Counted from the first letter of the stretch, positions 1-12,551 are shown. The stretch is 13,338 nucleotides of DNA from Bdellovibrionales bacterium (GCA_020434415.1 JAGRAW010000073.1:1-13338); one strand, 5' to 3'. Numbers and translations are program-made. Notes: generated by a model from the letters alone, not told the origin.

Positions 1-710
1 CATACGACAAACGCAAACAGAAGATCGCTCGCGCAATGGCTAAAATACTCAATACCTCGGGCCTCTCATGGGGCATTCTCGGCACCGGAGAGCATTGTTC
101 GGGAGACCCGGCCCGCCGCCTAGGTGAAGAGAACCTCTTTCAGAGCGCCGCCAAGGTCAATCTGGAGACTCTCCGTAGTATTCGCTTCGAGAAGCTGGTT
201 GCCAACTGTCCACATTGCTTCAATACGCTTCGCAACGAGTATCCGGCTTTGGGCAACCTCGCGGAGGATCGTTCTGTCGAAGTAATCCACCACAGCATCT
301 TCATCAAATCGCTGTTGGCCGAAGGGCGCCTGTCGGTAGCGAAAGATTTCGATCGTGACCTCACCTACCACGATCCCTGCTATCTAGGCCGTTATAACGA
401 ACACTACGAAGAGCCTCGGGACGTGCTGGTGCAGCTCGGCTCGAAGCCCATCCGTGAAATGCGAGACAATCGCCAAACAGGGCTGTGCTGTGGCGCCGGC
501 GGCGGACACTACTGGTTCGACATGAAAGTCGGTGAGCGTGTCAATTCCCTCCGAGTCGATCAAGCCGCCGAAACAGGTGCTCCGGTTATCGCCACCGGCT
601 GTCCTTTCTGCATGCAGATGCTGGAGGATGGCGTCAAGCTCACAGGACGAGAGGAAACCTTGGCCGTCAAAGATCTCGCCGAGCTTGTTGCCGATGCGCT
701 GATCGAGTAG
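1..710 (+). CDS. C-terminal portion of an Fe-S oxidoreductase with cysteine-rich CCG domains (HdrD/GlcF/LutA-like); the 5' end lies upstream of the window
   Basis: The frame of the 36..710 ORF stays open back to nt 3 (YDKRKQKIARA precedes the first Met), so the gene is truncated by the window edge. The translation has the spacing of two CCG-type cysteine-rich modules: HCSGDP ... NCPHCFNTL ... DPCYLGRY ... GLCCGAGGGHYW ... ATGCPFCMQM. It ends with stop TAG at 708-710. Confidence 0.7.
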   Translation, partial: YDKRKQKIARAMAKILNTSGLSWGILGTGEHCSGDPARRLGEENLFQSAAKVNLETLRSIRFEKLVANCPHCFNTLRNEYPALGNLAEDRSVEVIHHSIFIKSLLAEGRLSVAKDFDRDLTYHDPCYLGRYNEHYEEPRDVLVQLGSKPIREMRDNRQTGLCCGAGGGHYWFDMKVGERVNSLRVDQAAETGAPVIATGCPFCMQMLEDGVKLTGREETLAVKDLAELVADALIE

Positions 711-748: not shown

Positions 749-1585
749 TCAGCGTGATGTCGAACGCGATCCCAGTCGAGCTCGAGCGTAGGCGAACGCC
801 AAATCAAAAGCTGTCGCAAAAGCTCCTGCTCCCGGCACAAGCTGAAGCGCTCGCCCAGCTTCGCTGCCCGCAAGCAGTATGGCGTCTCGTGCCGTAAAGG
901 ACCCTTGATCGACGCGCTCCGCTACCCGACGCAACTCTGTTAGCAGCCCGCTTGAGGCACCCGCCGCACCCAGCAGTCTTGCCGGTCCGGCTAGTCGCTC
1001 GCTGCGCCTTGCGAGCGAGACTCCGAGGGCAAGCGGATCCGCCACCTGAAGGATCTGCGTTGCGGTGCGAACGGCGGCATCAAACATACCTCCCAGCCCG
1101 CTCTTCTTCTTGTAATAGAGAACTCGAGGCACGCCGGTTTCCTTATCAAACGAAAAGCGAAAGCGACGCTTTCCGTCGTTCACCCGTAGCTCGTCTAGCG
1201 GGTTCGCCAGGAATTCTCTCAGCTCCGAGTCGAAGCGATCGATAACGCGATTTACCCATTGGTTGTGTCGTTCGCTCGTCCTAACCTCGTATTCGCATCT
1301 CGCTGGAAGCTTCTCGACCGGAATACCGTAGCGCAAACTAATCTCGGCCAATCGCCGGTTCTGTTCCCCCGTGAGGTTCGGGTTGCGCAGGCGAGCAAAT
1401 CCGAGTTCGCTCCATGCAAGGTACCCCTCTCGAGCGTTGCCCGTACCGCCGTTTCGACCGACGGCCTCTGCGACATCACGTCGCCACTGAGGCATAAGAA
1501 AATGCGCCAGTCCCTGAGCACTGAGCTCTCCCGAGTGCGCCGCTGTGGGAATATAGCCTGCCAAGTAAGGCTTTTCTGAAACCAT
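749..1585 (-). CDS. hypothetical protein (279 aa from ATG at 1585-1583; the ORF track starts it at a TTG at 1591)
   Basis: An 840-bp ORF convergent with the CCG gene. GGTAGGAAA-like purine tract lies ~9 nt upstream of the ATG on the - strand. The N-terminal two-thirds look globular (KPYLAGYIPTAAHSGE ... HNQWVNRVIDRFDSELREFL ... VLYYKKKSGLGGMFD). The C-terminal third is Ala/Gly/Leu/Arg-rich (LLGAAGASSGLL ... LVPGAGAFATAFDLAFAYARA). I could not place it in a family. The + strand ORFs overlapping it (952..1245, 1259..1579) are short and low-complexity. Confidence 0.5.
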   Translation of the reverse strand: MVSEKPYLAGYIPTAAHSGELSAQGLAHFLMPQWRRDVAEAVGRNGGTGNAREGYLAWSELGFARLRNPNLTGEQNRRLAEISLRYGIPVEKLPARCEYEVRTSERHNQWVNRVIDRFDSELREFLANPLDELRVNDGKRRFRFSFDKETGVPRVLYYKKKSGLGGMFDAAVRTATQILQVADPLALGVSLARRSERLAGPARLLGAAGASSGLLTELRRVAERVDQGSFTARDAILLAGSEAGRALQLVPGAGAFATAFDLAFAYARARLGSRSTSR

Positions 1586-1696
1586 GTGCAATTTCCTACC
1601 GTTCCTGTAGCCTTCAAAATTTACCGCTCACCGAAGAAGTATTCGCCGTTTTTCTGCAAAGGTTTCCGCTGTCGGAGTAAGCACTCCAAGGGTAGG

Positions 1697-1873: not shown

Positions 1874-2335
1874 ATGTTCGAGAAGATCAATCAGTTCCTA
1901 GCCGGGACGGCGAGCCTTGGAGTCGAATCCTCGGGACAGCCCACTGCGCGCGACTTGCAGATCGCGACAGCCGCGTTACTGGTCAAGATGGCCTTCGTCG
2001 ACGAGCGGCTGGCGGATGAAGAGATGAAAGCACTCGTCGGCAATCTCAATCGCCAGTTCCATCTCAGCGACACCGAGGCCGGAGATCTGTTGGAAGTCGC
2101 GGACTACCTTCGACGAGACCAGGCGAAACTCTCGGAATTGATCAACCTCATTCATAAACGCTTCGAGGAGGCTCAGCGCATCACCATCGTCGCAATGCTT
2201 TGCCGAGTCATGCACGCCGACGGCGTGGTCACGAAACTCGAAGCGCATCTTGCCAGTGAAGTCGCTCAATCCCTGAAGCTCTCCATCGCGCAGATTGAAG
2301 CGGCGCAGGAAATGGCCGAGACTGGTCAAGTGTGA
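1874..2335 (+). CDS. TerB-family (tellurite-resistance TerB-like) protein, 153 aa
   Basis: The translation is colinear with E. coli TerB as I recall it. N-terminus MFEKINQFLAG matches MSFFDKVKGAL. Two helical repeats each have a conserved acidic/hydrophobic core: IATAALLVKMAFVDERLADEEMKAL and ITIVAMLCRVMHADGVVTKLEAHL ... IAQIEAA. The length is typical for TerB (PF05099). Confidence 0.8.
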   Translation: MFEKINQFLAGTASLGVESSGQPTARDLQIATAALLVKMAFVDERLADEEMKALVGNLNRQFHLSDTEAGDLLEVADYLRRDQAKLSELINLIHKRFEEAQRITIVAMLCRVMHADGVVTKLEAHLASEVAQSLKLSIAQIEAAQEMAETGQV

Positions 2336-2383: not shown

Positions 2384-3397
2384 ATGATCTTCAACATTCG
2401 AGAACAGCTTCGCTCCGTCATTGAATGGGAAAACGCCAACAAGGCGAACCTTTTCGAGCAATGGACCCGCAACGGCGACGAGATCAAGAACGCTTCGAAG
2501 CTCATCGTAAAGCCCGGCCAAGGCGTCATCTTTGTCTACGAAGGAAAGATCGAAGCCGTTCATCTCGACGAAGGTCTCTACAGTCTCGAAACGGCGAACA
2601 TTCCTTTCCTGACGACAATAACGAAGCTCCTCCAGTATTTCGAGAGTGAGCACAAAGTCGGCCTTTACTATTTTTGGCAGACTCAGTTTATCGATCAGAA
2701 GTGGGGCACCCCGACCACCATCAAGTACGATGATCCGGTCTACGGTTTCCCCGTAGCACTTCGTGCCCACGGTAACTTCAGCTTTCGAATAGACCGTCCG
2801 GAATTTTTCTTCGTCAATGTCGTCGGTGGAGAGCCGTTATTCACGGTTGAACAGGCCCGACGCACGATCGCCGACCGGTTCCTGCAAGAGCTAGGAGATG
2901 TGTTGGCGTCCTCGGGCTACAGCTATGCAGAAGTCGACCGAAATCGGGTCGAACTCGCAGCGCGCTTGACTGAAAGTCTAGCGCCGACCTGCGCCGCTCT
3001 CGGATTCCAACTGACCGACTTCCGAATCGAGGGCACAGACTTCGATGCCGACACCCAGGCGCGGATCGCGAGAATCGCGGATTTGACAGCCGAGGCCGAG
3101 GGAGCACGACGAGCAGGTCTCAGCTATGCCGAGCTCCAACGACTGGAGGCTCTCCGAGAAGCCGCCCGGAACGAAGGTGGGCTTGCAGGTGCCGGTGTCG
3201 GTCTCGGAGCAGGCCTTGGCATCGGACAAGCGTTTACCGCGGGAATGGCGCCGGGACTGCAACCGCCCCAGGCGGCAGCAGCGGCTCCTTTGGATCCGAC
3301 AGCGCGCCTGGCGCAACTCAAAGGCCTGCTTGACTCGAAGCTGATCAGCCAAGAAGAGTTTGATTCCAAGAAAGCGCAAATTCTGGCAGATCTGTAG
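2384..3397 (+). CDS. SPFH/band-7 (stomatin-prohibitin-flotillin-HflKC) domain protein of the COG4260 / Bacillus YdjI type, with a Gly/Ala-rich linker and a C-terminal SHOCT domain
   Basis: The N-terminal 230 aa align by eye with B. subtilis YdjI. VIEWENANKANLFEQWTRNGDEIKNASKLIVKPGQGVIFVYEGKIEAV corresponds to VVEWEEFRDDMIFYKWNNREIKKGSRLIIRPGQDAVFLNNGRVEGV. ETANIPFLTTI corresponds to ESEIIPFLSTL. A low-complexity linker follows: GGLAGAGVGLGAGLGIGQAFTAGMAPGLQPPQAAAAAPLDP (~3175-3295). The C-terminus ARLAQLKGLLDSKLISQEEFDSKKAQILADL (~3305-3394) fits the SHOCT consensus (L.eLk.LldkGlIteEEFe.kKakiL). Confidence 0.85.
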   Translation: MIFNIREQLRSVIEWENANKANLFEQWTRNGDEIKNASKLIVKPGQGVIFVYEGKIEAVHLDEGLYSLETANIPFLTTITKLLQYFESEHKVGLYYFWQTQFIDQKWGTPTTIKYDDPVYGFPVALRAHGNFSFRIDRPEFFFVNVVGGEPLFTVEQARRTIADRFLQELGDVLASSGYSYAEVDRNRVELAARLTESLAPTCAALGFQLTDFRIEGTDFDADTQARIARIADLTAEAEGARRAGLSYAELQRLEALREAARNEGGLAGAGVGLGAGLGIGQAFTAGMAPGLQPPQAAAAAPLDPTARLAQLKGLLDSKLISQEEFDSKKAQILADL

Positions 3398-3483: not shown

Positions 3484-4098
3484 ATGACCGTCCAGCAATA
3501 CAACTGCCCGACCTGCGGGGCACCGCTTCCTGTCGAGAACCGCTTTTCTCTGCAAGTAATCTGCAGCTACTGCGGCCAGTCCTCTCGGATTACTCCGCAG
3601 GGGCTTGACCCCAGCGGAGAGAAGGCGCTGCTCGCCGACTTCCCTTCTATCTTGTCAATCGGCGCTACAGGAATGCTCCGCGGCACACCGTTTAAAGTGC
3701 TCGGAATGCTTCGGTTCAAGTATGACGGCGGGTTCTGGGATGAATGGTTTCTGGCGCTGGACACCGGCAAAAAGCTTTGGCTGCAAGAAGACGAAGGCGA
3801 GTTCACCGCCTTCGAGAAAGAGCAGTTGACGTCACCGGTGCCGCCCTTCGAGGAAATGCAAGTGGGCTCCCTTGTTCCGGTCAACGGCAAGCAATTTTTC
3901 ATCATGGAAAAACGCCGCGCGGTGCTTGCCGGCGGCCGCGGCGAGCTGACTTTCGTTGTCACTCCCCACAGCGCCGTCGGCTGCGTAGATGGCAACGCCG
4001 GGGGGATCTTGATGAGCATCGAATATCTTCCGGATGAGATCAACCTTTCCTGGGGAGCGGAGGTCCCTCTCGAGGAGCTGCAAGTCGACGCTCCATGA
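3484..4098 (+). CDS. zinc-ribbon + DUF4178-like domain protein (YdjG-like partner of the SPFH protein), 204 aa
   Basis: The N-terminal CPTCGAPL ... CSYCGQ (nt 3505-3516 and 3562-3573) is a CxxC...CxxC zinc ribbon. The remaining ~150 aa (GTPFKVLGMLRFKYDGGFWDEWFLALDTGKKLWLQEDEGEF ...) match my recollection of the DUF4178 family pattern. It sits immediately downstream of the SPFH gene. The stop TGA 4096-4098 overlaps the next ATG (ATGA). Confidence 0.65.
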   Translation: MTVQQYNCPTCGAPLPVENRFSLQVICSYCGQSSRITPQGLDPSGEKALLADFPSILSIGATGMLRGTPFKVLGMLRFKYDGGFWDEWFLALDTGKKLWLQEDEGEFTAFEKEQLTSPVPPFEEMQVGSLVPVNGKQFFIMEKRRAVLAGGRGELTFVVTPHSAVGCVDGNAGGILMSIEYLPDEINLSWGAEVPLEELQVDAP

Positions 4099-5279
4099 GC
4101 GGCAAGTTCAAACCGGAATCGTTTCTCGCGCTGGGAAAAGAGTGTACCTATCGAGACGTCCGCTACCAAATCATCGGTCGGATCTGTAAAGAAGCACAAA
4201 TCAGCGAATGGGATGCTGAAGACCAACGCTACTATGATGAACCCTGGAGTTCCGACCTCTGGGTGTTGGTTGGCGCCCAGAAAGAGTATCTGTACATCAC
4301 GGAGGATCGCGAAGGCTATGCGATCTCGACCGCCTTCACACCCAGTGCTCCGAGCATCCCACCGGAAGATGCAAGAACGATGACGCTGGAGACAGCCACG
4401 CCTCCACGACGAATCTTGGAACGCGGCACTGCCAAAACTGTCTATTTCGAAGGCGAGTTTACCTGGACCCCAGCCATCGGAGACATCGACAAATACTGCG
4501 AGTATGATGCAGGCGGGGTTCGCTACAGCGTCGAATGGAAAGTGTCGCCTGACGGCGCGGGCATCGAAGAGGTCGAGTTTTTCGCGACCCGCCCCATCGG
4601 CAAGCTCGAGCTTGCCGAACTCTTCGGAGAACAGTCGATACTGGATGAAGCTCGCCGAGCGTCTCAGCATAAAGCACAGTACCGACAGTGGTCGGTGCTA
4701 TTCTGGGTGGCCGGAATGATCTCGACGCTCTTCGCTGTCACCGCCCTCTTTCGTGAAGGCACCCTCGTCGATCGCTTCGAAATCGAGATGGCCAAGATTG
4801 CTGACACCGGGCTCATTCGGGGCCCCTTTCAGCTTGATCAGGTGGGCCGGGTCCACGAGCTCGTGCTCAGCACCTCCATCCCCGACAACAGTGAAGCATG
4901 GGGAGCTGCAGAGCTTCTTAACGGTGAACAGGCAGCGATCAATGCGCTGGAGGGAGAATTTTGGCGGGAATCAGGGTATGACTCGGATGGGCACTGGTCA
5001 GAGAGCGACACCACCCATAGCAGGCTCTTCCGCCTCGACCACCCCGGAACCTACTATGTCCGTCTGATGGCCGACGGGGCATCGGCACCTGCGGCAACCC
5101 TGCGCTTCGAATTATACAAAGACGTACCGCTCGCCCGCTGGTATATTCTGACAACCCTGCTTTGCTTCGGGCTAGCGGTCGCGATGGTCAAATATCAGTC
5201 GACGAATCCCCTCTACATTGTCGCTGGGCTTTTCGCCGTCGGATATTTCGTGCTGTCGATGCTTGCCGACGATGATTGA
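4095..5279 (+). CDS. membrane protein with an N-terminal DUF4178-like soluble domain, one central TM helix, a ~125-aa intervening domain and a C-terminal double TM anchor (394 aa)
   Basis: It is translationally coupled to the previous gene through the ATGA at 4095-4098. The N-terminal ~190 aa repeat the pattern of the preceding protein: TYRDVRYQIIGRI ... EWDAED ... YDEPW ... LWVL versus TPFKVLGMLRF ... GGFWDEWFLAL. Hydrophobic segments: WSVLFWVAGMISTLFAVTALF (~nt 4689-4758), and WYILTTLLCFGLAVAMV ... LYIVAGLFAVGYFVLSML (~nt 5130-5265). Confidence 0.6.
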   Translation: MSGKFKPESFLALGKECTYRDVRYQIIGRICKEAQISEWDAEDQRYYDEPWSSDLWVLVGAQKEYLYITEDREGYAISTAFTPSAPSIPPEDARTMTLETATPPRRILERGTAKTVYFEGEFTWTPAIGDIDKYCEYDAGGVRYSVEWKVSPDGAGIEEVEFFATRPIGKLELAELFGEQSILDEARRASQHKAQYRQWSVLFWVAGMISTLFAVTALFREGTLVDRFEIEMAKIADTGLIRGPFQLDQVGRVHELVLSTSIPDNSEAWGAAELLNGEQAAINALEGEFWRESGYDSDGHWSESDTTHSRLFRLDHPGTYYVRLMADGASAPAATLRFELYKDVPLARWYILTTLLCFGLAVAMVKYQSTNPLYIVAGLFAVGYFVLSMLADDD

Positions 5280-5299: not shown

Positions 5300-5533
5300 A
5301 TGACGCCATTTTCGAAATTCTTGATTGCAACACTTGCCGGATCGGCACTGTTGCTTCCGTATTTTGCGTCGTCTCGCGGGTGGGGAGTCGGCTCAGAGCG
5401 AAACGCCGGCATCGCGGCGCTCGCTGCCCAGGACTGCCTCCGAAAGGATGCTGCCGGCCGCTGTATCGCCGGTCATCGAAGCTATTTTCGGCGCCGCAAT
5501 TACATCGGGGGCGGCATGCGCTCCGGCAAGTGA
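5300..5533 (+). CDS. possible small (77-aa) signal-peptide-bearing protein in the repeat-rich spacer; very tentative
   Basis: ATG 5300 is preceded by AAGGTAGG (5285-5292) at a 7-nt spacing. The translation is MTPFSKFLIATLAGSALLLPYFASS|RGWG..., which has a signal-peptide shape. The mature part is Gly/Arg-rich with 2 Cys. Codon usage is not clearly like the neighbouring genes, and it could be spurious. Confidence 0.2.
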   Translation: MTPFSKFLIATLAGSALLLPYFASSRGWGVGSERNAGIAALAAQDCLRKDAAGRCIAGHRSYFRRRNYIGGGMRSGK

Positions 5534-5535
5534 AC

Positions 5536-5565
5536 GGCACGCAGTGACCTCGCACGCAGTGACCT
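5536..5565. repeat. 15-bp tandem direct repeat x2 (sGCACGCAGTGACCT)
   Basis: ggcacgcagtgacct / cgcacgcagtgacct, read directly at 5536-5550 and 5551-5565. Confidence 0.9.
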
Positions 5566-5588
5566 GTCGAGGAGGGACCTATATGCAT

Positions 5589-5621
5589 GAAAAGCAGACC
5601 ATATACAGGAAAAGCAGACCA
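5589..5621. repeat. 13-bp direct repeat GAAAAGCAGACCA x2 with 20-bp periodicity
   Basis: gaaaagcagacca at 5589-5601 and again at 5609-5621. Confidence 0.9.
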
Positions 5622-5622
5622 C

Positions 5623-5667
5623 GCAATGAAGCGCGGGGCAATGAAGCGCGGGGCAATGAAGCGCGGG
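5623..5667. repeat. perfect 15-bp tandem direct repeat x3 (GCAATGAAGCGCGGG)
   Basis: gcaatgaagcgcggg occurs three times head-to-tail at 5623-5637, 5638-5652 and 5653-5667. It lies 44 bp upstream of the DUF350 start codon. Confidence 0.95.
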
Positions 5668-5695
5668 CTGAACAAGTCTTTGGCAATGACCACAC

Positions 5696-5700
5696 GGAGG
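5696..5700 (+). promoter_or_regulatory. Shine-Dalgarno sequence GGAGG for the DUF350 gene
   Basis: GGAGG lies 10 nt upstream of ATG 5711. Confidence 0.5.
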
Positions 5701-5710
5701 AACACCATCC

Positions 5711-5938
5711 ATGCATTCAACGTTTACCGGTAACCCTGTTGTAGACGGCGTCCTCGCCACGATACTCTATAGCGGCATCGGCATCTTGATGGCCTTCATC
5801 GCGTTCAAAGTCGTAGACATGATAACGCCTGGTGACCTTGGCAAGGCGATTTCCGAGAATAATCTGGCCATGGCAGTACTTGCCGGGTGCAGCATTCTCG
5901 GCATCAGCATCATTATTGCCGCGGCAATTGTCGGCTAG
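5711..5938 (+). CDS. DUF350 family small membrane protein (75 aa, two TM helices)
   Basis: MHSTFTGNPVVDGVLATILYSGIGILMAFIAFKVVDMITPGDLGKAISENNLAMAVLAGCSILGISIIIAAAIVG. The size, two hydrophobic helices, the central ITPxDL-E motif and the N-AVA-L-G-IL-AIII-AAI tail are as I remember DUF350 (PF03994). Confidence 0.75.
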   Translation: MHSTFTGNPVVDGVLATILYSGIGILMAFIAFKVVDMITPGDLGKAISENNLAMAVLAGCSILGISIIIAAAIVG

Positions 5939-6056
5939 GTCGCCGGAACTACCTCTCGCCAGTCCGGCAGCATCAAAGGCCGCGGCTGCCGGTGCGCTCT
6001 CCGGGCTCGGGCGACGCTGTCACACGGTTCTCGCCCGACGAAAAAGCGCCTAAGCA

Positions 6057-7622
6057 ATGTCCGAACTATCGCAGCATTCTCCGGCCGAAGCGCTTGAGTC
6101 CGCGGCCCGCCCGGCAACCAGCCGGGAAATTGCGGTGCTCGGCACGGCCATTCTCATTACCTCCGTTTGCGCCATCGTCTACGAACTGCTGGTAAGCACC
6201 CTTTCCTCGTATCTCCTCGGCAGCAGCGTCCTACATTTTTCTCTGACCATCGGACTCTTCATGACGTTCATGGGTGTGGGTGCCTTCTGGTCGAAGTTCA
6301 TCGACACCCGATTGCTCGACTGGTTCATCTTCATCGAACAATTGGTCGGCCTCATCGGCGGCTGCGCCGCGTTTCTTCTCTATCTCAGCTTCAGCCTGAC
6401 CGAGTACTACTACCTGGTAGCGTTTCTGCTGATTGCGGCAATATCGACCTGCGTCGGCTTGGAGATCCCGCTTGTCACGCGAGAGCTACGGAAACATCGC
6501 GAACTAAAAGATGCCTTGGCCAATATTCTGGCCATCGACTACCTGGGGGCGCTGATCGCCTCGATTCTGTTTCCGATCGTGCTAGTCCCCTACCTAGGAC
6601 TAATGCGTACCGCGTTTCTGATGGGAATGCTGAACGTGGGAACGGCAATAGCTACGGCGGTGGTGTTCCGAACGCGACTGACTTTTTTTCGCTTTCATCT
6701 TACCCTGGGTCTGAGCTTTCTTGTCGTGCTCGGCAGCGGGTTCCTATATTCCTTTCACTTGATCGGTTTCTATGAGCAAAATCTCTATCAAGACGAGATC
6801 ATTCACTCCGAGCAGAGTAGCTATCAGCGCATCATTCTAACCCGCTTCGACGACGATATCCGCCTCTATCTCAACGGAAGTCTGCAATTCAGCACGATTG
6901 ACGAGTATCGTTACCACGAGACACTGACGCATATCCCGCTCGGTGTTGTCCCCAACCGGGAGAACATCCTGATTCTGGGCGGGGGTGACGGACTCGCCGC
7001 ACGAGAAGCCTTGAAGTATCCTGATGTGCAGTCGATAACGCTCGTCGATATCGATGAACGTATGACCACGCTTGCGGCGGAGCACCCGATTTTGCGGAAA
7101 CTGAACGCAGAGTCACTCTCGGCGGCGCGGGTGAAGGTAATAAATCAGGATGCCTGGGAGTTTCTTGCAACCGATCCTTCGCTCTACTCCGCAATTATCA
7201 TCGACTTGCCCGATCCGGACGATTTTGCGGTCGGCAAGCTGTATACACAGGAGTTCTACCGGCTTGCGAAGCGACGACTCGCCGCCGACGGTGTGTTGAT
7301 AACTCAGGCGTCATCACCGTTTTTTGCACGAGAACCCTTCTGGTGTATTCACCACACGCTCGAAGCGGTGTTCAGCCACGTCCAACCACTGACGCTTTAT
7401 GTCCCTTCCTTCGGTCCCTGGGGATTCCACCTAGCCTCCGGTCGTAAATTTGACGTAAGCGACGTCAAGTTAGTCGTACCCACTCGCTTCCTGAACGCGG
7501 TAACGCTCGAAAGCGTTTTCACCGTAGCACCCGATGAGGGTGAGGTTTCGACGGAGCTAAACCGACTCGACAATCAACATCTGGTAACTCTCTACGAGCA
7601 AAGCCTGGATGACTGGAACTAA
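6057..7622 (+). CDS. speE: membrane-anchored polyamine aminopropyltransferase (spermidine/spermine-synthase family) with an N-terminal ~7-TM domain, 521 aa
   Basis: The C-terminal half carries the spermidine-synthase signatures: ILILGGGDGLAAREALKYPDVQSITLVDIDERM (GGGDG ~6978-6992), IIDLPDPDD (~7199-7222) and GKLYTQEFY. The N-terminal 230 aa are a run of hydrophobic helices (ILITSVCAIVYELLV ... LTIGLFMTFMGVGAFW ... LVGLIGGCAAFLLYL ... YLVAFLLIAAISTCVGL ... LGALIASILFPIVLVPY ... GMLNVGTAIATAVVF ... GLSFLVVLGSGFLY). This is the same architecture as the large TM-fused SpeE proteins that follow DUF350 genes in other bacteria. Confidence 0.85.
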   Translation: MSELSQHSPAEALESAARPATSREIAVLGTAILITSVCAIVYELLVSTLSSYLLGSSVLHFSLTIGLFMTFMGVGAFWSKFIDTRLLDWFIFIEQLVGLIGGCAAFLLYLSFSLTEYYYLVAFLLIAAISTCVGLEIPLVTRELRKHRELKDALANILAIDYLGALIASILFPIVLVPYLGLMRTAFLMGMLNVGTAIATAVVFRTRLTFFRFHLTLGLSFLVVLGSGFLYSFHLIGFYEQNLYQDEIIHSEQSSYQRIILTRFDDDIRLYLNGSLQFSTIDEYRYHETLTHIPLGVVPNRENILILGGGDGLAAREALKYPDVQSITLVDIDERMTTLAAEHPILRKLNAESLSAARVKVINQDAWEFLATDPSLYSAIIIDLPDPDDFAVGKLYTQEFYRLAKRRLAADGVLITQASSPFFAREPFWCIHHTLEAVFSHVQPLTLYVPSFGPWGFHLASGRKFDVSDVKLVVPTRFLNAVTLESVFTVAPDEGEVSTELNRLDNQHLVTLYEQSLDDWN

Positions 7623-7680: not shown

Positions 7681-8997
7681 TTGTCCGCGAGTGCTCGCAT
7701 TCTCTGTATTGGCGATGTCCACCTCGGTCGCGCTCCGACGCGCCTGCGTCTGGACAACGAGTGGTATGAAGGTCTTGGCCCTCGAGAAGCCCTGCGCCGG
7801 GCGGCTCGAGAGGCAATCGAACTGCAAGTCGATGTGGTCGTCTGCACCGGTGATGTCATCGACCAATCAAACGCCTTCTTCGAGGCTCATCGGGTGCTTC
7901 GAACCGTCGCAGGACAACTGACTGAAGCGGGCATTCCGTTCGTAGCGATAAGCGGCAATCACGACTACGAATCCTTACCCGAATGCCAAAAGCAGGTACC
8001 AGGGCTCACCATCCTTGGTCGGAACGGCAGTTGGGAAGAATTCGTCATTGTGCGTGACGGGACGCCCCTGCTTCGACTGCTTGGTCGGTCGTTTACCGAC
8101 CGCTATCAAAAGACCAATCCCCTGGAGGGCTTCGACCTTCCTGCAGACGGCGTTCCCAGCGTCGGACTTCTGCACTGCGATGTGGACGTTCCCGACAGCC
8201 CGTATGCTCCAGTCGATCTGAGAAGCCTTTTAGCGACCGCCCCGTCCGCCTGGCTCCTAGGCCATGTACATAAACCGCAACTTCTTTCCACACGACCTCT
8301 CATCTTGTATCCCGGTAGCTTGCAGGGCCTTGATCCGGGCGAGCCGGGAGTCCGCGGACCCTGGCTAGTCGAGGTCTCCGCCGACGGTCAAACCACCGCC
8401 AACCAACTGCCGCTGGCTCCTGTGCGCTACGAGCGGCTCGAGGTAGCAATCGACGATCTCGAGTCGATCGAGCAAGTCAGTGGTGCAATCGCGGAAGCGG
8501 TAAGTTCGTGGAGAACGATCAATTCCGCGGAGCTTCGACTGACACGCTTCGTGTCGCTGCGGTTGGTGTTGACCGGCAGTACGACCCTACAGCAATCTCT
8601 CGCTGTCCTTGCAGCTCGGCTCACGAGTCAAAGAGAGCGCTTCGACGACGACGAACCGTACATCGTCATCGACAAGGTACTGATCGAGTGCAGCCCCCGA
8701 ATCGACCTTGCGACATTGGCAAGAAGTAACGATGTTCCCGGCTTGTTGGCGAAGCGGTTGTTGGTACTGAAAAACCAAAATCCGCATGAGGCATACCGTT
8801 CCCTGATCGAACAAGCAGGCGCAAAGTTGGCGAACGTGCATGCCGATCCGCTCTTTTCTGATATCGCAAAAGACCGGGCACTAAGTGAAGTCGCTATCCG
8901 TGACACGCTTATTCGTGCAGGCACCGTTGCGCTTCATACTCTGCTTGCCCAACAAACTCCCGCCGTCGACCATCCGTCGCCTGAGAATTCCGGATGA
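7681..8997 (+). CDS. Mre11/SbcD-type calcineurin-like metallophosphoesterase (DNA repair exonuclease family; B. subtilis YhaO-like), 438 aa, apparent TTG start
   Basis: Phosphoesterase motifs are in canonical order: GDVHLG (7711-7728), GDVIDQ, GNHD (7954-7965), HCDVDV, GHVH (8260-8271). A ~200-aa C-terminal extension follows the catalytic core. The stop TGA 8995-8997 overlaps ATG 8994 of the next gene. Confidence 0.8.
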   Translation: MSASARILCIGDVHLGRAPTRLRLDNEWYEGLGPREALRRAAREAIELQVDVVVCTGDVIDQSNAFFEAHRVLRTVAGQLTEAGIPFVAISGNHDYESLPECQKQVPGLTILGRNGSWEEFVIVRDGTPLLRLLGRSFTDRYQKTNPLEGFDLPADGVPSVGLLHCDVDVPDSPYAPVDLRSLLATAPSAWLLGHVHKPQLLSTRPLILYPGSLQGLDPGEPGVRGPWLVEVSADGQTTANQLPLAPVRYERLEVAIDDLESIEQVSGAIAEAVSSWRTINSAELRLTRFVSLRLVLTGSTTLQQSLAVLAARLTSQRERFDDDEPYIVIDKVLIECSPRIDLATLARSNDVPGLLAKRLLVLKNQNPHEAYRSLIEQAGAKLANVHADPLFSDIAKDRALSEVAIRDTLIRAGTVALHTLLAQQTPAVDHPSPENSG

Positions 8998-11900
8998 AGC
9001 TTCAAAAACTGCACATTAGACGCATGCCGGGAGTTTCCGACTTCGAGCTCTCCGATCTCGCCACCGGCGTCACTGTCGTCACCGGACCGAACGGGTCCGG
9101 GAAGACAACCGCCTGCCGAGCCATACGCGGATTGCTCTGGCCGGAGGAGCTCCGCAACGTCGTCTTTCCTGAACTCGAAAGCACGTGGCTTCTTGACGAC
9201 GGTCGAACCGCCACGCTGAGTGTTTCCGGAGCAGACCGCCGCTGCTACATTGAGGGAAGCGTGCAGGAGTCCCTCTCCCTACCTCCCTCCCACCTCGCGT
9301 CATGTTATACCATCACGATTGATGACTTATTCGCGGACAACGATGCCGAACTCGCCCGTGAGGTCGAGCGGGAACTGTCGGGCGGGTTTGATCTTGCTGC
9401 AGTGATGCAGGCGGAGGCGCTGCAGGTAAAGCGCACACGTATACGAGACGCCGTACGGCACATCCAGCAACTTTCGCTCCGCGTCAGAGAACTGCAGTCG
9501 GCGCAGCGTGCACTACACCTCAAACGCGAAAAGCTCGCTGAGATGGAGACGCGAGCGAGCGAAGCCAGACGCGCGCAAACCCGCCTAGCTCGAATAGATG
9601 ACGCACTTCGCCACAACACAGTACTGCGTGATCTTGAAGCACTTCGTTCGCGACACACGCAGTTTCAACCGGCAGTAGCTCGTATCTGCGGCGGAGAAAG
9701 ACGTGAGCTCGAGCGTCTCCAAAGTGAAAGTATTGAACGTCGGCAGGAGGCCGCAAGCGCGGCGGAAGCTCTAGAGCAAGCCGCAGAGCGGCTTGCAACG
9801 ACAGGAACAACCTTTGCCGACTTAGCGCTGCGAGACCAGCTACACTGTCGCGACCAGATCGAAACGCTTCGAGCTCTTCAAGCAGACATCGAGCAGCGCG
9901 AAGCTCATATCGAGGGATTACTGACCACGTGCCGTTCTCTGCAGCGGAAGCTCGGAGGTCTAGGGAATCCCGCCTCGTTGGCGTTGCTCGAGCCTCAAGA
10001 GCTCGAGGAGATCGAACAGTTCCAGCGACTCGTAGAAAGCCACGAAGCGAAGGTCTTACAGCTGCGCACACAACTGCAGATTGCCGAAACCGAGCTAGGT
10101 TCCGGGCCCCTGCCTGCGTCGGAAGAACTACGCGAACAGATTCGCCTACTCGAACAGTGGCTCGCGCTTGACAGTACGCACCGCATCGCGACCGTTCGCA
10201 CGCTGGTGGCAGCGGGCAGCGTTGCTGCCGTTGTAGCAATCGTGACAACTCTCTTCCTTGCAACCGACGGTTTTCGCGCGAACAACAGTGACCCGCTCTG
10301 GTTTACAGCCACGGCAATTTCGTTAGGAACGCTGCTCTTCTTACTCTTCGCCGCGCGCGGCGATGCTCGCCGAAAGCGAGCACTGGAGGAGGAGTTCCTC
10401 AGCCGCTACCAACCGCAGGCGGTTCCCTTCGAAGCGCCCTACGTCAGATCCACGATCAGTTCCTTACTTGAAACATACGAGCAAAGCCGTCGTGTGGAGC
10501 ACGCGGAACAAACGGCGAAAGACGTCCGAACCCTTTTGAAGGGTATGGAAACAGAGGAAGCTCGAATCCAACGAACCCAGGGTCTACTCGCTGAGCGCTT
10601 GGGGTGCGCCCCGAGCGCCTCCACACTGACGTTAGTCGCCTTTGCGTCTTCCCTTCGCGATTTCCAACAAAGCTACCAAGCTCTCGAAGCTTCGAACGCG
10701 GAACTGGAACACCGAATCGAGGAACGAAATCGCATCCTCGGAGCGGTCAATCGCTTCTTCGGACAGTTTTCCGTACCGGAAGTAGCGTCTGGAGCGGCGG
10801 CGAGTGCCTCGTATGCCGAACTCGAGGTTCGTGCCGCACAGGGAAGAACGGCGACGCAAGAGCACAAGCTCGCGCAGGCGGCCGTAGAACGAGCACAAGC
10901 AGCCCTCGAGCGAATAGATGCGGCGCGAAAGGCTTTTTTTGAGCGCTTCGATTTACCCGACGACGCGGACGCTGCTTTCGAAACGCTGATGTCCGATTTC
11001 GAAGCATTCGAACAGTCGAAACTCAAGATTCAAGAACTCGAACGGGAACGCGTCTCCATCGTCGACCGCCTGGAAAGGGATGCGCCTGACCTACTACAAC
11101 TATCTGAGGACGAACTAATCGTCGAGCAACTGGAGGCGCACCAACTCGGCGAACAAGCGGATGCGCTTTGGTCTACTGTGGTCGAGACGCGCCTTCTGAT
11201 CGGGCAAGCGGAACAAGAGACGGTGCTCGAAGAAGCACTTCGTGATCTTGAAGAGTCCCGCGCTGCACTTGCGGAATACCACGAGCAGACGCTTCTAGCA
11301 GGTGCTGCCGATGTGCTGCTCGCTACCGTAGTGAACGAACACGAGAGCACCCGCCTGCCCGCAGTACTGCTTAGAGCGAACGAGCTGTTCGAACGCTTTA
11401 CCCACCAGCGCTACGGTTTGCTCCGCGCGGAACAAGGGGAGCGAGAACCGACGTTTCGTGCTCGAGACCTTGCGACCGGAGCGGTGGTCTCGCTGGAAAG
11501 TCTTTCGCGAGGCACACGATCGCAGCTTCTGCTCGCGGCACGAGTCGCTTTTGCTGAGCATCAAGAGCGGCGGGAGCGACTACCTTTCGTCCTCGACGAA
11601 GTTCTCAGCAGCACCGACCCTCAGCGGTTCCAGCGTGTCGCGGAAGCCCTATTCGCACTCGCCGCAGACGGACGTCAGCTTTTGTATTTCAGTTGCCAGC
11701 CCTATGATGCAGAGCAGTGGGCACTTGCGGCGTCAGCAAACCCTGCTGTTGCCGTGCGCTTTCTCGAGTTGACTCACAGTGGACGAGCGTCTACGGCGCC
11801 CGCACCCCTTGCCGCCCAGGCCATTGCACGGCTCGAAAGTGCAGTCGAAGCCCCGAACGGACGCTCCATTAGCGCCTACATCGAAGCGCTACGTCTCCCA

Positions 11901-12551
11901 CCTCTCAAAGTGTTACAAGGAGCAGAGGCTGCTCATCTGGGCCACCTGGTTACCGATCCGGAGCTGCTTTACCGGCTACTGAGTACCGGTCTTCATCGCT
12001 TTGGACAGCTTCGCCGTCTTATCGCAGCAAATGCTTCCGCTGGCTATATTGGCGAAGCTGATCGGGCCCAAGTCGAAGCGCGTGCTAAACTTATCGATCG
12101 CCTCTGCGCCGATGCCCGGATTGGACGAGCGAAGGTCCTTTCGACGGAGGCACTTCTTTCGTTTGTGAGTACGAGTAAACGGCTCGAACAGGAGCTGGTC
12201 CAGCTTACTACTACCCTGGGCGGCGATGCCACACTGCTGCTTCAGCTGATCGATCCCGCTCGCCCGGGAGGATCGCTGATTCCCGGCTTTCGTAAAAATA
12301 CCTTCGAGAAGCTACGCGAGCGTCTAATCGAGGAAGGATACGTCGCTTTCGAAGCACGGTTGCCCCGGGAAGAAACGTGGTTACGCTTTCTCGCCCATGC
12401 CGAACCCGCAGTTACATCCGGGATTCTCGATCCTGGGGAGGTCAGCGCATTTTTCGCACTGCTGTGGGACACCATTCCGCAAGCTCCGTCGGAAGTGGTA
12501 CCGCCGGCCTCAGCGCAGGAGCTTTCCAATGTCGCACAAGCGGGACGCTAA
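8994..12551 (+). CDS. SMC-like Rad50/SbcC-family ATPase (B. subtilis YhaN/SbcE-like), 1185 aa, with a two-helix transmembrane hairpin inserted in the coiled-coil arm
   Basis: Walker A GPNGSGKTT (9084-9110). Long heptad-like, Arg/Glu/Leu/Gln-rich coiled-coil halves (aa ~140-395 and ~460-900). ABC signature-like SLSRGTRSQLLLAARVAF (11499-11522) precedes Walker B/D-loop FVLDEVLSSTD (11586-11618). Mid-protein hydrophobic hairpin: TLVAAGSVAAVVAIVTTLFLA - TDGFRANNSDPLW - FTATAISLGTLLFLLFAA, followed by RGDARRKRA (nt ~10199-10355). Confidence 0.8.
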   Translation: MKLQKLHIRRMPGVSDFELSDLATGVTVVTGPNGSGKTTACRAIRGLLWPEELRNVVFPELESTWLLDDGRTATLSVSGADRRCYIEGSVQESLSLPPSHLASCYTITIDDLFADNDAELAREVERELSGGFDLAAVMQAEALQVKRTRIRDAVRHIQQLSLRVRELQSAQRALHLKREKLAEMETRASEARRAQTRLARIDDALRHNTVLRDLEALRSRHTQFQPAVARICGGERRELERLQSESIERRQEAASAAEALEQAAERLATTGTTFADLALRDQLHCRDQIETLRALQADIEQREAHIEGLLTTCRSLQRKLGGLGNPASLALLEPQELEEIEQFQRLVESHEAKVLQLRTQLQIAETELGSGPLPASEELREQIRLLEQWLALDSTHRIATVRTLVAAGSVAAVVAIVTTLFLATDGFRANNSDPLWFTATAISLGTLLFLLFAARGDARRKRALEEEFLSRYQPQAVPFEAPYVRSTISSLLETYEQSRRVEHAEQTAKDVRTLLKGMETEEARIQRTQGLLAERLGCAPSASTLTLVAFASSLRDFQQSYQALEASNAELEHRIEERNRILGAVNRFFGQFSVPEVASGAAASASYAELEVRAAQGRTATQEHKLAQAAVERAQAALERIDAARKAFFERFDLPDDADAAFETLMSDFEAFEQSKLKIQELERERVSIVDRLERDAPDLLQLSEDELIVEQLEAHQLGEQADALWSTVVETRLLIGQAEQETVLEEALRDLEESRAALAEYHEQTLLAGAADVLLATVVNEHESTRLPAVLLRANELFERFTHQRYGLLRAEQGEREPTFRARDLATGAVVSLESLSRGTRSQLLLAARVAFAEHQERRERLPFVLDEVLSSTDPQRFQRVAEALFALAADGRQLLYFSCQPYDAEQWALAASANPAVAVRFLELTHSGRASTAPAPLAAQAIARLESAVEAPNGRSISAYIEALRLPPLKVLQGAEAAHLGHLVTDPELLYRLLSTGLHRFGQLRRLIAANASAGYIGEADRAQVEARAKLIDRLCADARIGRAKVLSTEALLSFVSTSKRLEQELVQLTTTLGGDATLLLQLIDPARPGGSLIPGFRKNTFEKLRERLIEEGYVAFEARLPREETWLRFLAHAEPAVTSGILDPGEVSAFFALLWDTIPQAPSEVVPPASAQELSNVAQAGR

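Follow-up and report, generated by a model that had tools for sequence, protein, structure and literature searches.

A membrane-fused spermidine synthase-like enzyme of a Bdellovibrionales bacterium lies in a conserved envelope module with DUF350, DUF4178 and a small lysine-terminated protein

We examined the gene neighbourhood of a membrane-fused, spermidine synthase-like enzyme, referred to here as TM-SpeE, in a stretch of DNA from a Bdellovibrionales bacterium (GCA_020434415.1, JAGRAW010000073.1:1-13338). This stretch, an entire contig of 13,338 bp, is called the window below, and positions are counted from its first letter. The TM-SpeE gene (6057-7622, plus strand, ATG start) encodes 521 amino acids (aa) and follows, after a gap of 118 bp, the gene for a half-size DUF350 protein of the YjfL family (75 aa; 5711-5938, plus strand, ATG start preceded by the ribosome-binding site GGAGGA). 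The open reading frames (ORFs), spacing and domains of this pair are as the first-pass annotation of the window had described them. The DUF350 protein has two hydrophobic helices by hydropathy and matches the Pfam family at 52.5 bits (cut-off 26, E 6.8e-14) over profile positions 3-66 of 133, which corresponds to a single repeat of two transmembrane (TM) helices. TM-SpeE consists of an N-terminal domain of seven TM helices (6057-6791) and a C-terminal aminopropyltransferase domain (6792-7622) of the type that uses decarboxylated S-adenosylmethionine (dcSAM).

Four genes precede this pair, all of them on the plus strand. The first encodes a Band-7/SPFH protein with a C-terminal SHOCT domain (2384-3397; Pfam Band_7_1 E 3.4e-37, SHOCT E 6e-07), which contains no hydrophobic segment and is therefore predicted to be cytoplasmic. 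It is followed by a soluble protein that combines a zinc ribbon with DUF4178 (3484-4098; Pfam DUF4178 E 8.9e-09, 36.1 bits, cut-off 25) and by a membrane protein, DUF4178-TM (4095-5279), with a DUF4178-like N-terminal domain that scores below the same cut-off (17.9 bits, E 0.0035), TM segments at residues 199-220, 344-365 and 372-393 by hydropathy, an extracytoplasmic domain and the C-terminal residues DDD. The fourth gene (5300-5533, with AAGGTAGG upstream of its ATG) lies between DUF4178-TM and DUF350 and had been overlooked in the first-pass annotation. It encodes a conserved protein of 77 aa that begins with a signal-peptide-like N-terminus, is predicted to be exported and ends in lysine.

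The conservation of these genes was explored in 80 distant TM-SpeE loci, one genome per species, whose enzymes are 41-51% identical to that of the window and which represent Bacteroidota, Chloroflexota, Acidobacteriota, Pseudomonadota, Campylobacterota, Bacillota, Spirochaetota, Myxococcota, Melainabacteria and Bdellovibrionota. Their ORFs were searched with iterated hidden Markov models (HMMs) built from the window proteins, and upstream genes were counted wherever more than 3 kb of upstream sequence was available (63 loci). DUF4178 genes were present in 53 of these 63 loci and DUF350 in 49, in 40 of which it lies immediately upstream of TM-SpeE on the same strand; a Band-7/SHOCT homologue was found upstream in 22/63. 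The DUF4178-TM protein was detected in 59 of the 80 loci. The Band-7/SHOCT protein also has homologues with 59-69% identity in six relatives of the window, L081 to L086. Throughout, the gene order is constant, (SPFH)-DUF4178-DUF4178TM-DUF350-SpeE. We conclude that Band-7/SHOCT, zinc-ribbon DUF4178, DUF4178-TM, the small Lys-terminated protein, DUF350 and the 7-TM aminopropyltransferase form a conserved six-gene envelope module, of which the DUF350/TM-SpeE pair is the 3' end. The joint occurrence of TM-SpeE, DUF350 and DUF4178 in these loci bears out the view of the first-pass annotation that they form a distinct conserved module. The alternative it had named, that the neighbours vary freely among genomes, holds for the downstream position and fails for the upstream genes, the order of which is fixed across phyla.

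The module itself is not new. Ravi et al. (2024, mSystems, PMC11237479) described a 7-TM-fused spermine/spermidine synthase-like gene that occurs with YjfL/DUF350, an exported lipoprotein and DUF4178. For Mycobacterium tuberculosis they list, from Rv2597 on, TM+DUF4178, DUF2617, DUF4247, YjfL/DUF350 and TM+Spermine_synth (PMC11237479), so the earlier naming of Rv2600-Rv2601 as a mycobacterial example was correct. Their second group of PspA-linked polyamine operons, typified by the Shewanella SO_3765 locus (PMC11237479), shares with the window the 7-TM-fused spermidine synthase, DUF350 and DUF4178 in one operon. In contrast to that group, the scanned ORFs of the window include no gene for PspA, CesT/Tir (DUF2170) or RHH. 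An exported protein precedes DUF350 in both cases; in their operons it is a lipoprotein with a Ctha_1186 domain, and in the window it is the 77-aa protein, which lacks a lipobox Cys. In this variant of the operon, the PspA-CesT/Tir dyad has given way to Band-7/SHOCT and TerB; a PspA gene was found in only one relative, L083, at a distance of 8 kb. With reference to Li et al. (2019), Ravi et al. also mention "aminopropylation of other substrates", meaning substrates that are not polyamines (PMC11237479), which speaks for a role outside housekeeping.

Three further genes, all missing from the window, recur at these loci. Clustering of all neighbours placed a flavin amine oxidase (PF01593) directly downstream of TM-SpeE in 27 loci, and 24 of 37 such oxidase sequences carry a twin-arginine export motif. 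A class-1b AdoMet decarboxylase gene, speD (PF02675, E 1.1e-26), lies within the module in about 17 loci and also in L086. An unannotated polytopic protein of about 362 aa with no Pfam match follows the amine oxidase, as the second gene downstream of speE, in 11 loci (e.g. L073, 13130-14227), and one further copy was found at position +5.

The small protein upstream of DUF350 was examined more closely. Its sequence, MTPFSKFLIATLAGSALLLPYFASSRGWG...C...C...HRSYFRRRNYIGGGMRSGK, contains an RGWG motif, two Cys residues and a tail rich in Gly, Arg, Ser and Tyr that ends in ...GGGMRSGK, and no Pfam family matched it. The two Cys are conserved in the subfamily to which the window protein belongs, and with an N-terminus that resembles a cleavable signal peptide it looks like an exported, disulfide-bonded peptide. 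In most loci the gap between DUF4178-TM and DUF350 holds an ORF of 43-80 aa; when simply the longest ORF in the gap was taken, 31 of 40 ended in Lys (counted by eye). An HMM with seeds partly picked by eye found the family in 50 loci in addition to the window, and all 51 members end in Lys (...GGK, ...YGK, ...HHK or ...YHK). When 30 members were aligned, only two columns proved invariant, the start Met and the C-terminal Lys. The association was also seen from the opposite direction. With the window protein alone as query against 1.84 billion representatives, 26 matches were obtained; all 25 with lengths of 65-82 aa end in GK, while the 26th is a local match within a 691-aa protein. The gene for one representative found in this way, by sequence alone, immediately precedes those for DUF350 and a Spermine_synth protein of 511 aa. 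The association between the small protein and the module is thus reciprocal.

Three Firmicutes loci (L013, L022 and L079) lack the separate small gene, and in these the DUF4178 protein itself ends in ...SSGGGTSSGK. The Lys tail there comes after a cytoplasmic DUF4178 domain, one TM helix and an extracellular domain. Through this fusion the tail is linked to the module and assigned to the outer side of the membrane. DUF4178-TM proteins without the Lys tail usually end in an acidic run (DDD, DDE, DE or EE), as seen at 5265-5279 of the window and in the orthologues of L010, L014, L020, L030, L045, L046 and L073. Besides the Lys tail, the module thereby shows another conserved C-terminus. The spacer between the small gene and DUF350 measures 177 bp in the window (5534-5710) and contains, at 5537-5667, three short arrays of tandem repeats that are perfect or nearly so (15 bp x 1.9, 20 bp x 2.2, 15 bp x 3.0). 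In L081 and L082 no more than 15-36 bp separate the two genes, so the repeats are an insertion specific to the window. They could serve as binding sites for a regulator, be left over from a mobile element or have arisen in the assembly.

TM-SpeE belongs to a large family. More than 7,500 database clusters matched it at E <= 1e-10, and M. tuberculosis Rv2601 is a member of the family. It matches the NCBIfam model NF002956 (PRK03612, polyamine aminopropyltransferase) end to end, with residues 15-519 on positions 9-520 of the 522-position model (575.8 bits, cut-off 472, E 6.7e-173). The models for canonical SpeE scored below their cut-offs (TIGR00417, 138.6 vs 249.55 bits; NF002010, 173.4 vs 260 bits). 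Pfam Spermine_synth spans residues 284-463 with E 6.8e-38. Searches of the PDB with the C-terminal half aligned the whole fold, the best matches being 6bq2 (thermospermine synthase ACL5, E 1.9e-34), 1iy9 (Bacillus subtilis SpeE) and 1uir (the triamine/agmatine enzyme of T. thermophilus), and the motifs align with those of the canonical soluble enzymes 1IY9, 1INL, 3O4F, 6BQ2 and 1UIR at E values from 1.9e-34 to 1e-18. The catalytic domain is closest to enzymes of the thermospermine synthase and triamine/agmatine types, and its gate loop, DLxDP...KLYT.EFY, resembles that of ACL5 and 1UIR.

Residue conservation was analysed in 71 homologues from many phyla. The aminopropyltransferase motifs reported by the first-pass annotation are intact, with GGGDG at residues 308-312 and DLPDP at 383-387. 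DExxYxE, GGGDG, D333, D365, D383 and D386 are invariant in all 71, D331 is Asp in 70/71, and the YQ motif is conserved, with Tyr in 68/71. The residues that bind dcSAM and the amine (YQ, DExxYxE, GxG(D/E)G and the D..D pair of the gate loop) align to those of 1IY9, 6BQ2 and 1UIR. The acidic residue in GxG(D/E)G sets the dcSAM-using aminopropyltransferases apart from methyltransferases that share their fold and use SAM (PMC10349129). Asp311 at the fourth position of this motif is invariant (71/71), in place of the non-acidic residue of the methyltransferases, and TM-SpeE is therefore very probably a genuine aminopropyltransferase. It keeps all the residues required for binding dcSAM and for deprotonating the attacking amine. 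Arg285, within DEYRYHE, occurs without exception in the 71 family members; its place is taken by F, Q, F, Y and Y in the PDB enzymes that were aligned. PADLOC matched the catalytic core (residues 300-455) to the MADS mad2 model with E 7.5e-17; the match covers the Rossmann core only and probably reflects generic similarity among methyltransferase-type Rossmann folds.

The membrane domain was examined by hydropathy and with an AlphaFold2 model of TM-SpeE (mean predicted local distance difference test score, pLDDT, 87.3). Both gave seven TM helices at residues 22-243, in agreement with the approximately seven helices previously noted in the N-terminal 230 aa or so. The domain is half of a transporter of the major facilitator superfamily (MFS), i.e. 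six helices, followed by a seventh, and in the PDB sequence search no solved structure covered it. It is as strongly conserved as the catalytic domain and contains buried charged residues, among which E136 and D161 are invariant (71/71) and E43, R142 and E94 are conserved in 69, 70 and 64 of the 71 homologues, respectively. The MFS/spermidine synthase (SpdSyn) fusions described by Li, Kurihara, Kim, Liang and Michael (2019, Biochem J 476:2579) likewise combine a transporter-type N-terminal domain with a SpdSyn-like domain and cluster with DUF350 and often with speD, a gene that is also present at many of the related loci. The corresponding model NF037959 matched TM-SpeE at 44 bits (cut-off 40). 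Compared with these fusions, TM-SpeE has only half an MFS domain (6+1 helices), is matched better over its full length by NF002956 and has no speD in the window.

The loops of the membrane domain differ in charge. The mean number of Lys plus Arg per sequence is 1.28 in the N-terminus, 2.17 in loop 2-3, 3.34 in loop 4-5 and 2.66 in loop 6-7, compared with 0.01 in loop 1-2, 0.13 in loop 3-4, 0.76 in loop 5-6 and 0.87 after TM7. The 15 residues past TM7 are acidic, with a mean of 3.04 Asp plus Glu. By the positive-inside rule this clear-cut bias predicts that the N-terminus is inside and the catalytic domain outside the cytoplasmic membrane. Considering the exported partners as well, we are moderately confident in the prediction that the catalytic domain is periplasmic or on the outer face. 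Aminopropyltransferases are oligomers, so that a pair of TM-SpeE protomers might restore a complete MFS-like cavity, with acidic residues along its walls, that would suit a cationic substrate.

Two known systems offer comparisons for an enzyme of this kind. The fungal methyltransferase NHMT (AN4663) consists of 7 TM helices and a methyltransferase domain of the SpdSyn fold, and it methylates the N-terminal His of secreted lytic polysaccharide monooxygenases in the endoplasmic reticulum (Batth et al. 2023, PMC10349129). NHMT depends on its TM domain for activity; it uses SAM, and an Ile replaces the acidic residue of GxG(D/E)G (PMC10349129). TM-SpeE shares the layout of about 215-245 residues with 7 TM helices followed by a SpdSyn-fold domain and differs in its invariant GGGDG, which indicates dcSAM. 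By analogy, NHMT provides a functional precedent for this architecture in the modification of protein termini on the non-cytoplasmic side.

The second comparison is with Escherichia coli, where the operon yjfIJKLMC includes yjfL (DUF350), yjfM (DUF1190) and yjfC, and ygiB and ygiC form a separate locus. RefSeq names YjfC and its paralogue YgiC "peptide--spermidine ligase", and the description of the two as ATP-grasp peptide-spermidine ligases reportedly goes back to Pederick et al. in 2023 (Biochemistry 62:899). The DUF1190 proteins YjfM and YgiB are lipoproteins. YjfM ends in ...ARGHWGG and YgiB in ...SRSMGG, and all 18 YjfM homologues with 44-76% identity end in GG. The last 20 or so residues are the best-conserved part of the E. 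coli DUF1190 proteins (yjfM, L088 7388-8026; ygiB, L089 3745-4416). Since the Gly-Gly ends are conserved and their genes lie directly upstream of the ligase genes, YjfM and YgiB are obvious candidate substrates. Like these loci, the window combines in one operon DUF350 (in yjf), a polyamine-related enzyme and an exported protein whose G-rich C-terminus is strictly conserved. The enzyme is an ATP-grasp ligase in E. coli and a dcSAM-dependent aminopropyltransferase here. Gly-Gly amidated with spermidine and Gly-Gly-Lys carrying an epsilon-aminopropyl group would differ by one carboxylate. By this analogy, the yjf-type and TM-SpeE operons may both make a spermidine-like protein C-terminus, the former by ligation and the latter by aminopropylation of an encoded Lys.

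We propose a mechanism with four components, given here in order of falling certainty. TM-SpeE would carry out local aminopropyl transfer at the cytoplasmic membrane, within a system for envelope maintenance or stress, rather than bulk synthesis of cytoplasmic spermidine. Two protomers would pair their half-MFS domains to form a transporter-like cavity for a cationic substrate, either dcSAM or an amine. The catalytic domain would meet exported partners on the outer face of the membrane. Finally, the acceptor would be the epsilon-amine of the C-terminal Lys of the small protein, and the product an N-epsilon-aminopropyl (carboxyspermidine-like) C-terminus. The strict conservation of this Lys makes it a possible acceptor, and we advance this last component only tentatively. 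Taken together, these components would amount to a new protein modification, in which an outward-facing enzyme, supplied with dcSAM by its own dimeric half-MFS domain, places one aminopropyl group or several on the Lys of an exported peptide, or in Firmicutes on the tail of DUF4178-TM, and so creates a polyamine tethered to a protein in the envelope, as the counterpart of YjfC/YgiC ligation onto the Gly-Gly ends of DUF1190. It is rather doubtful that this scheme holds in full. As far as the literature shows, neither the Lys-terminated partner nor the predicted topology has been described in print.

Several observations weigh against Lys as the acceptor or against the scheme around it. We know of no bacterial precedent for an outward-facing dcSAM-dependent enzyme, and such an enzyme would require the export of dcSAM. 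The 13.3 kb of the window contain neither speD (AdoMet_dc) nor an amine oxidase. The small protein has no detectable homology to DUF1190 (hhalign probability 0.4%), and the parallel to the E. coli system is therefore one of analogy only. Within that system the substrate relation of YjfM and YgiB is itself unproven because the ligases are cytoplasmic and the DUF1190 proteins look exported. The HMM seeds for the small protein were in part a choice by eye, of which the database-wide search was independent. We also compared the type of tail, GK or HK, with the alignment columns of TM-SpeE. The associated columns were scattered over both domains, and the HK-type enzymes are a subclade (55.7% vs 48.7% identity), so this co-variation test is confounded by phylogeny and uninformative. 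An invariant C-terminal Lys can also have another meaning: that of Braun's lipoprotein, which ends in YRK, is linked to peptidoglycan. Lastly, the invariant D383 and D386, whose equivalents hold the two amines of putrescine in SpeE, would suit a lysine side chain no better than a free diamine or polyamine.

This last point leads to the main rival explanation, which matches the localised polyamine production suggested in the first-pass annotation. Here the acceptor is a free di- or polyamine, and spermidine, thermospermine or a longer polyamine is made at the membrane, with the half-MFS domain coupling synthesis to transport and the Lys-terminated protein acting as a regulator, sensor or scaffold. 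We regard it as possible, if somewhat unlikely. The conservation of the putrescine-binding Asp pair together with the dcSAM residues in the 71 homologues speaks for it, as do the best structural relatives, i.e. thermospermine synthase and the triamine/agmatine enzymes, which accept long amines and share the ACL5-like gate loop. Acidic residues buried in a domain of MFS type are a usual feature of transporters for amines and cations, the commonest downstream neighbour is a Tat-exported flavin amine oxidase of the polyamine type, and the NCBI family name is "polyamine aminopropyltransferase". However, a free acceptor leaves unexplained both the strict invariance of the C-terminal Lys and its fusion to DUF4178-TM. 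It is also at odds with the result that Li and colleagues are said to have obtained in 2019, namely that related MFS-SpdSyn fusions failed to complement an E. coli speE mutant and that their hosts lack spermidine.

The small protein may instead be a tether similar to Braun's lipoprotein, Lpp, its Lys being cross-linked to peptidoglycan by an L,D-transpeptidase while the enzyme acts on a free polyamine or on an amine linked to peptidoglycan. The protein is indeed small and exported by prediction, and its invariant C-terminal Lys often follows an aromatic or basic residue (YHK, HHK, YGK), which recalls the YRK end of Lpp. The module also includes the envelope-stress partners SPFH and TerB. However, the family is present in Firmicutes and Chloroflexota loci too, it is found specifically beside TM-SpeE, and the recurrent neighbours included no L,D-transpeptidase. 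We consider this explanation improbable.

It is likewise quite improbable that TM-SpeE is the housekeeping spermidine synthase, merely anchored in the membrane and with unrelated neighbours. The "equivalog" name of its NCBIfam model, the intact active site and the use of the name speE for M. tuberculosis Rv2601 in the literature would all agree with such a role, and no other speE was found within the window. The window ends, however, before the position at which a second enzyme is encoded in its closest relatives. L081 to L084 each have, on the opposite strand and 3.7-8.2 kb downstream of the membrane-fused gene, a soluble fusion of AdoMet_dc and Spermine_synth of 357-361 aa (L081, 19764-20837; L082, 13062-14141; L083, 12131-13216; L084, 8923-10008). 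Where the phosphoesterase/SMC-like gene pair described below is present, the fusion lies 3.7-4.0 kb past the SMC-like gene. Fusions of the AdoMet_dc+Spermine_synth type from Pelagibacter are active polyamine synthases (PMC11107197). Within this lineage, then, the membrane enzyme is not the sole aminopropyltransferase, and the separate soluble fusion in the closest relatives argues against a housekeeping role for TM-SpeE. In addition, canonical SpeE is a soluble enzyme of about 280-300 aa, whereas TM-SpeE has 521 aa with a membrane domain of 245 residues and 7 TM helices in a fixed genomic context; it misses the cut-offs of the canonical models, its upstream gene order is conserved in many phyla, and its TM domain, with invariant charged residues, is as conserved as the catalytic one. 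The earlier suggestion that the product may not serve bulk polyamine synthesis is strengthened by the missed cut-offs and by the second, soluble enzyme of the relatives. We are fairly confident that TM-SpeE has a non-housekeeping role localised to the envelope.

The first-pass annotation had also linked TM-SpeE to the DNA nuclease encoded next to it. Two genes follow TM-SpeE on the plus strand, both outside the module: a metallophosphoesterase annotated as "DNA repair exonuclease" (7681-8997; Metallophos E 4.3e-13) and an SMC/ABC-type ATPase of 1185 aa (8994-12551) with matches to SMC_N and AAA_23. The cut-offs for SbcD/Mre11 and SbcC/Rad50 were missed (TIGR00619, 39.2 vs 77.65 bits; Rad50/SMC models, E ~0.001-0.01), and the SMC_N match of the ATPase is likewise below threshold (34.7 bits, cut-off 40). 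Across cassettes the ATPase has about 1,150-1,185 aa, with two TM helices in the middle of its coiled coil (residues 398-455) and a weak match of the AAA_27/YhaN type. PADLOC gave no match for the phosphoesterase and only P-loop-level matches for the ATPase (E 6e-08 or weaker).

Searches with single sequences as queries found this pair in none of the 80 distant loci, 65 of which extend more than 2 kb downstream of TM-SpeE. Outside the window, just the two nearest relatives, L081 (59% identity) and L082 (56%), have it behind TM-SpeE, and both are syntenic with the window. The pair diverges much faster than the module: its two proteins share 39% and 30% identity with those of L081, compared with 56-69% for the module genes. 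A search that started from the phosphoesterase found this conserved two-gene cassette without SpeE on three further, unrelated contigs, two of which have defence-type neighbours: in L090 it adjoins OLD-type ATPase, UvrD, SNF2 and PglZ genes (PglZ being a BREX component) and in L092 an MkoC-like helicase-nuclease, a TIR protein and a type I restriction-modification system, while L091 is a housekeeping context. The downstream position is occupied elsewhere by a MacB-type ABC system (L085), a DjlA-like TerB-DnaJ protein (L086), the amine oxidase and others. In L083 and L084, a Mokosh MkoC gene (1057 aa, SF1 helicase plus PLD nuclease; PADLOC E 2.7e-286) splits the DUF350-speE pair (L083, 4805-7978; L084, 1597-4770). 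Thus, operon edges in this lineage accept mobile cassettes of the repair or defence type. The pair is unrelated to the module, and its adjacency says nothing functional about polyamines and DNA. Although the pair follows speE in the window, L081 and L082, and MkoC lies between DUF350 and speE in L083/L084, the comparative evidence of absence, divergence and independent occurrence, together with predicted chemistry at the membrane or periplasm and away from DNA, led us to reject the functional link, and cooperation of TM-SpeE with the nuclease/SMC-like pair, e.g. through polyamines that condense or protect DNA in repair or defence, is extremely improbable.

The remaining genes of the window lie upstream of the module. 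At the start of the contig, an ORF of 224 aa with a CCG domain (36-710, plus strand) is the counterpart of the C-terminal end of an Fe-S/CCG oxidoreductase that has 737 aa in L081. A protein of 280 aa (749-1591, minus strand) has no Pfam match and is 39% identical to its counterpart in L081. A TerB-domain protein (1874-2335, plus strand; Pfam TerB E 2.1e-20) is 50% identical to that of L081, where the gene also lies upstream of the module (5905-6366). In L086, a gene of the DjlA-like TM-TerB-DnaJ type is found directly downstream of speE (11568-12374). Single-sequence searches detected no TerB in the 80 distant loci, by which distant TerB homologues could be missed, and no homologues of orf280 or orf219. 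TerB may be a lineage-specific upstream accessory that recurs. With TerB, Band_7_1+SHOCT, two DUF4178 proteins, the metallophosphoesterase and the SMC-like ATPase, the stress- and nuclease-type neighbours are those originally described. No Rfam family matched the intergenic regions at the gathering threshold in a search for riboswitches and other RNAs, and scans for promoters and terminators near the genes gave no excess over the shuffled expectation.

The TM-SpeE family is routinely annotated as plain "spermidine synthase", contrary to its context and architecture. The comparative analysis clears away the nuclease neighbours as a false lead. The co-encoded, Lys-ended exported peptide and the topology prediction make the question of the acceptor substrate, as it stands in the polyamine field, directly testable. 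If the C-terminal Lys is the acceptor, TM-SpeE would catalyse a new protein modification, and the polyamine operons linked to DUF350, including the yjf and ygi loci of E. coli, would follow a common logic.

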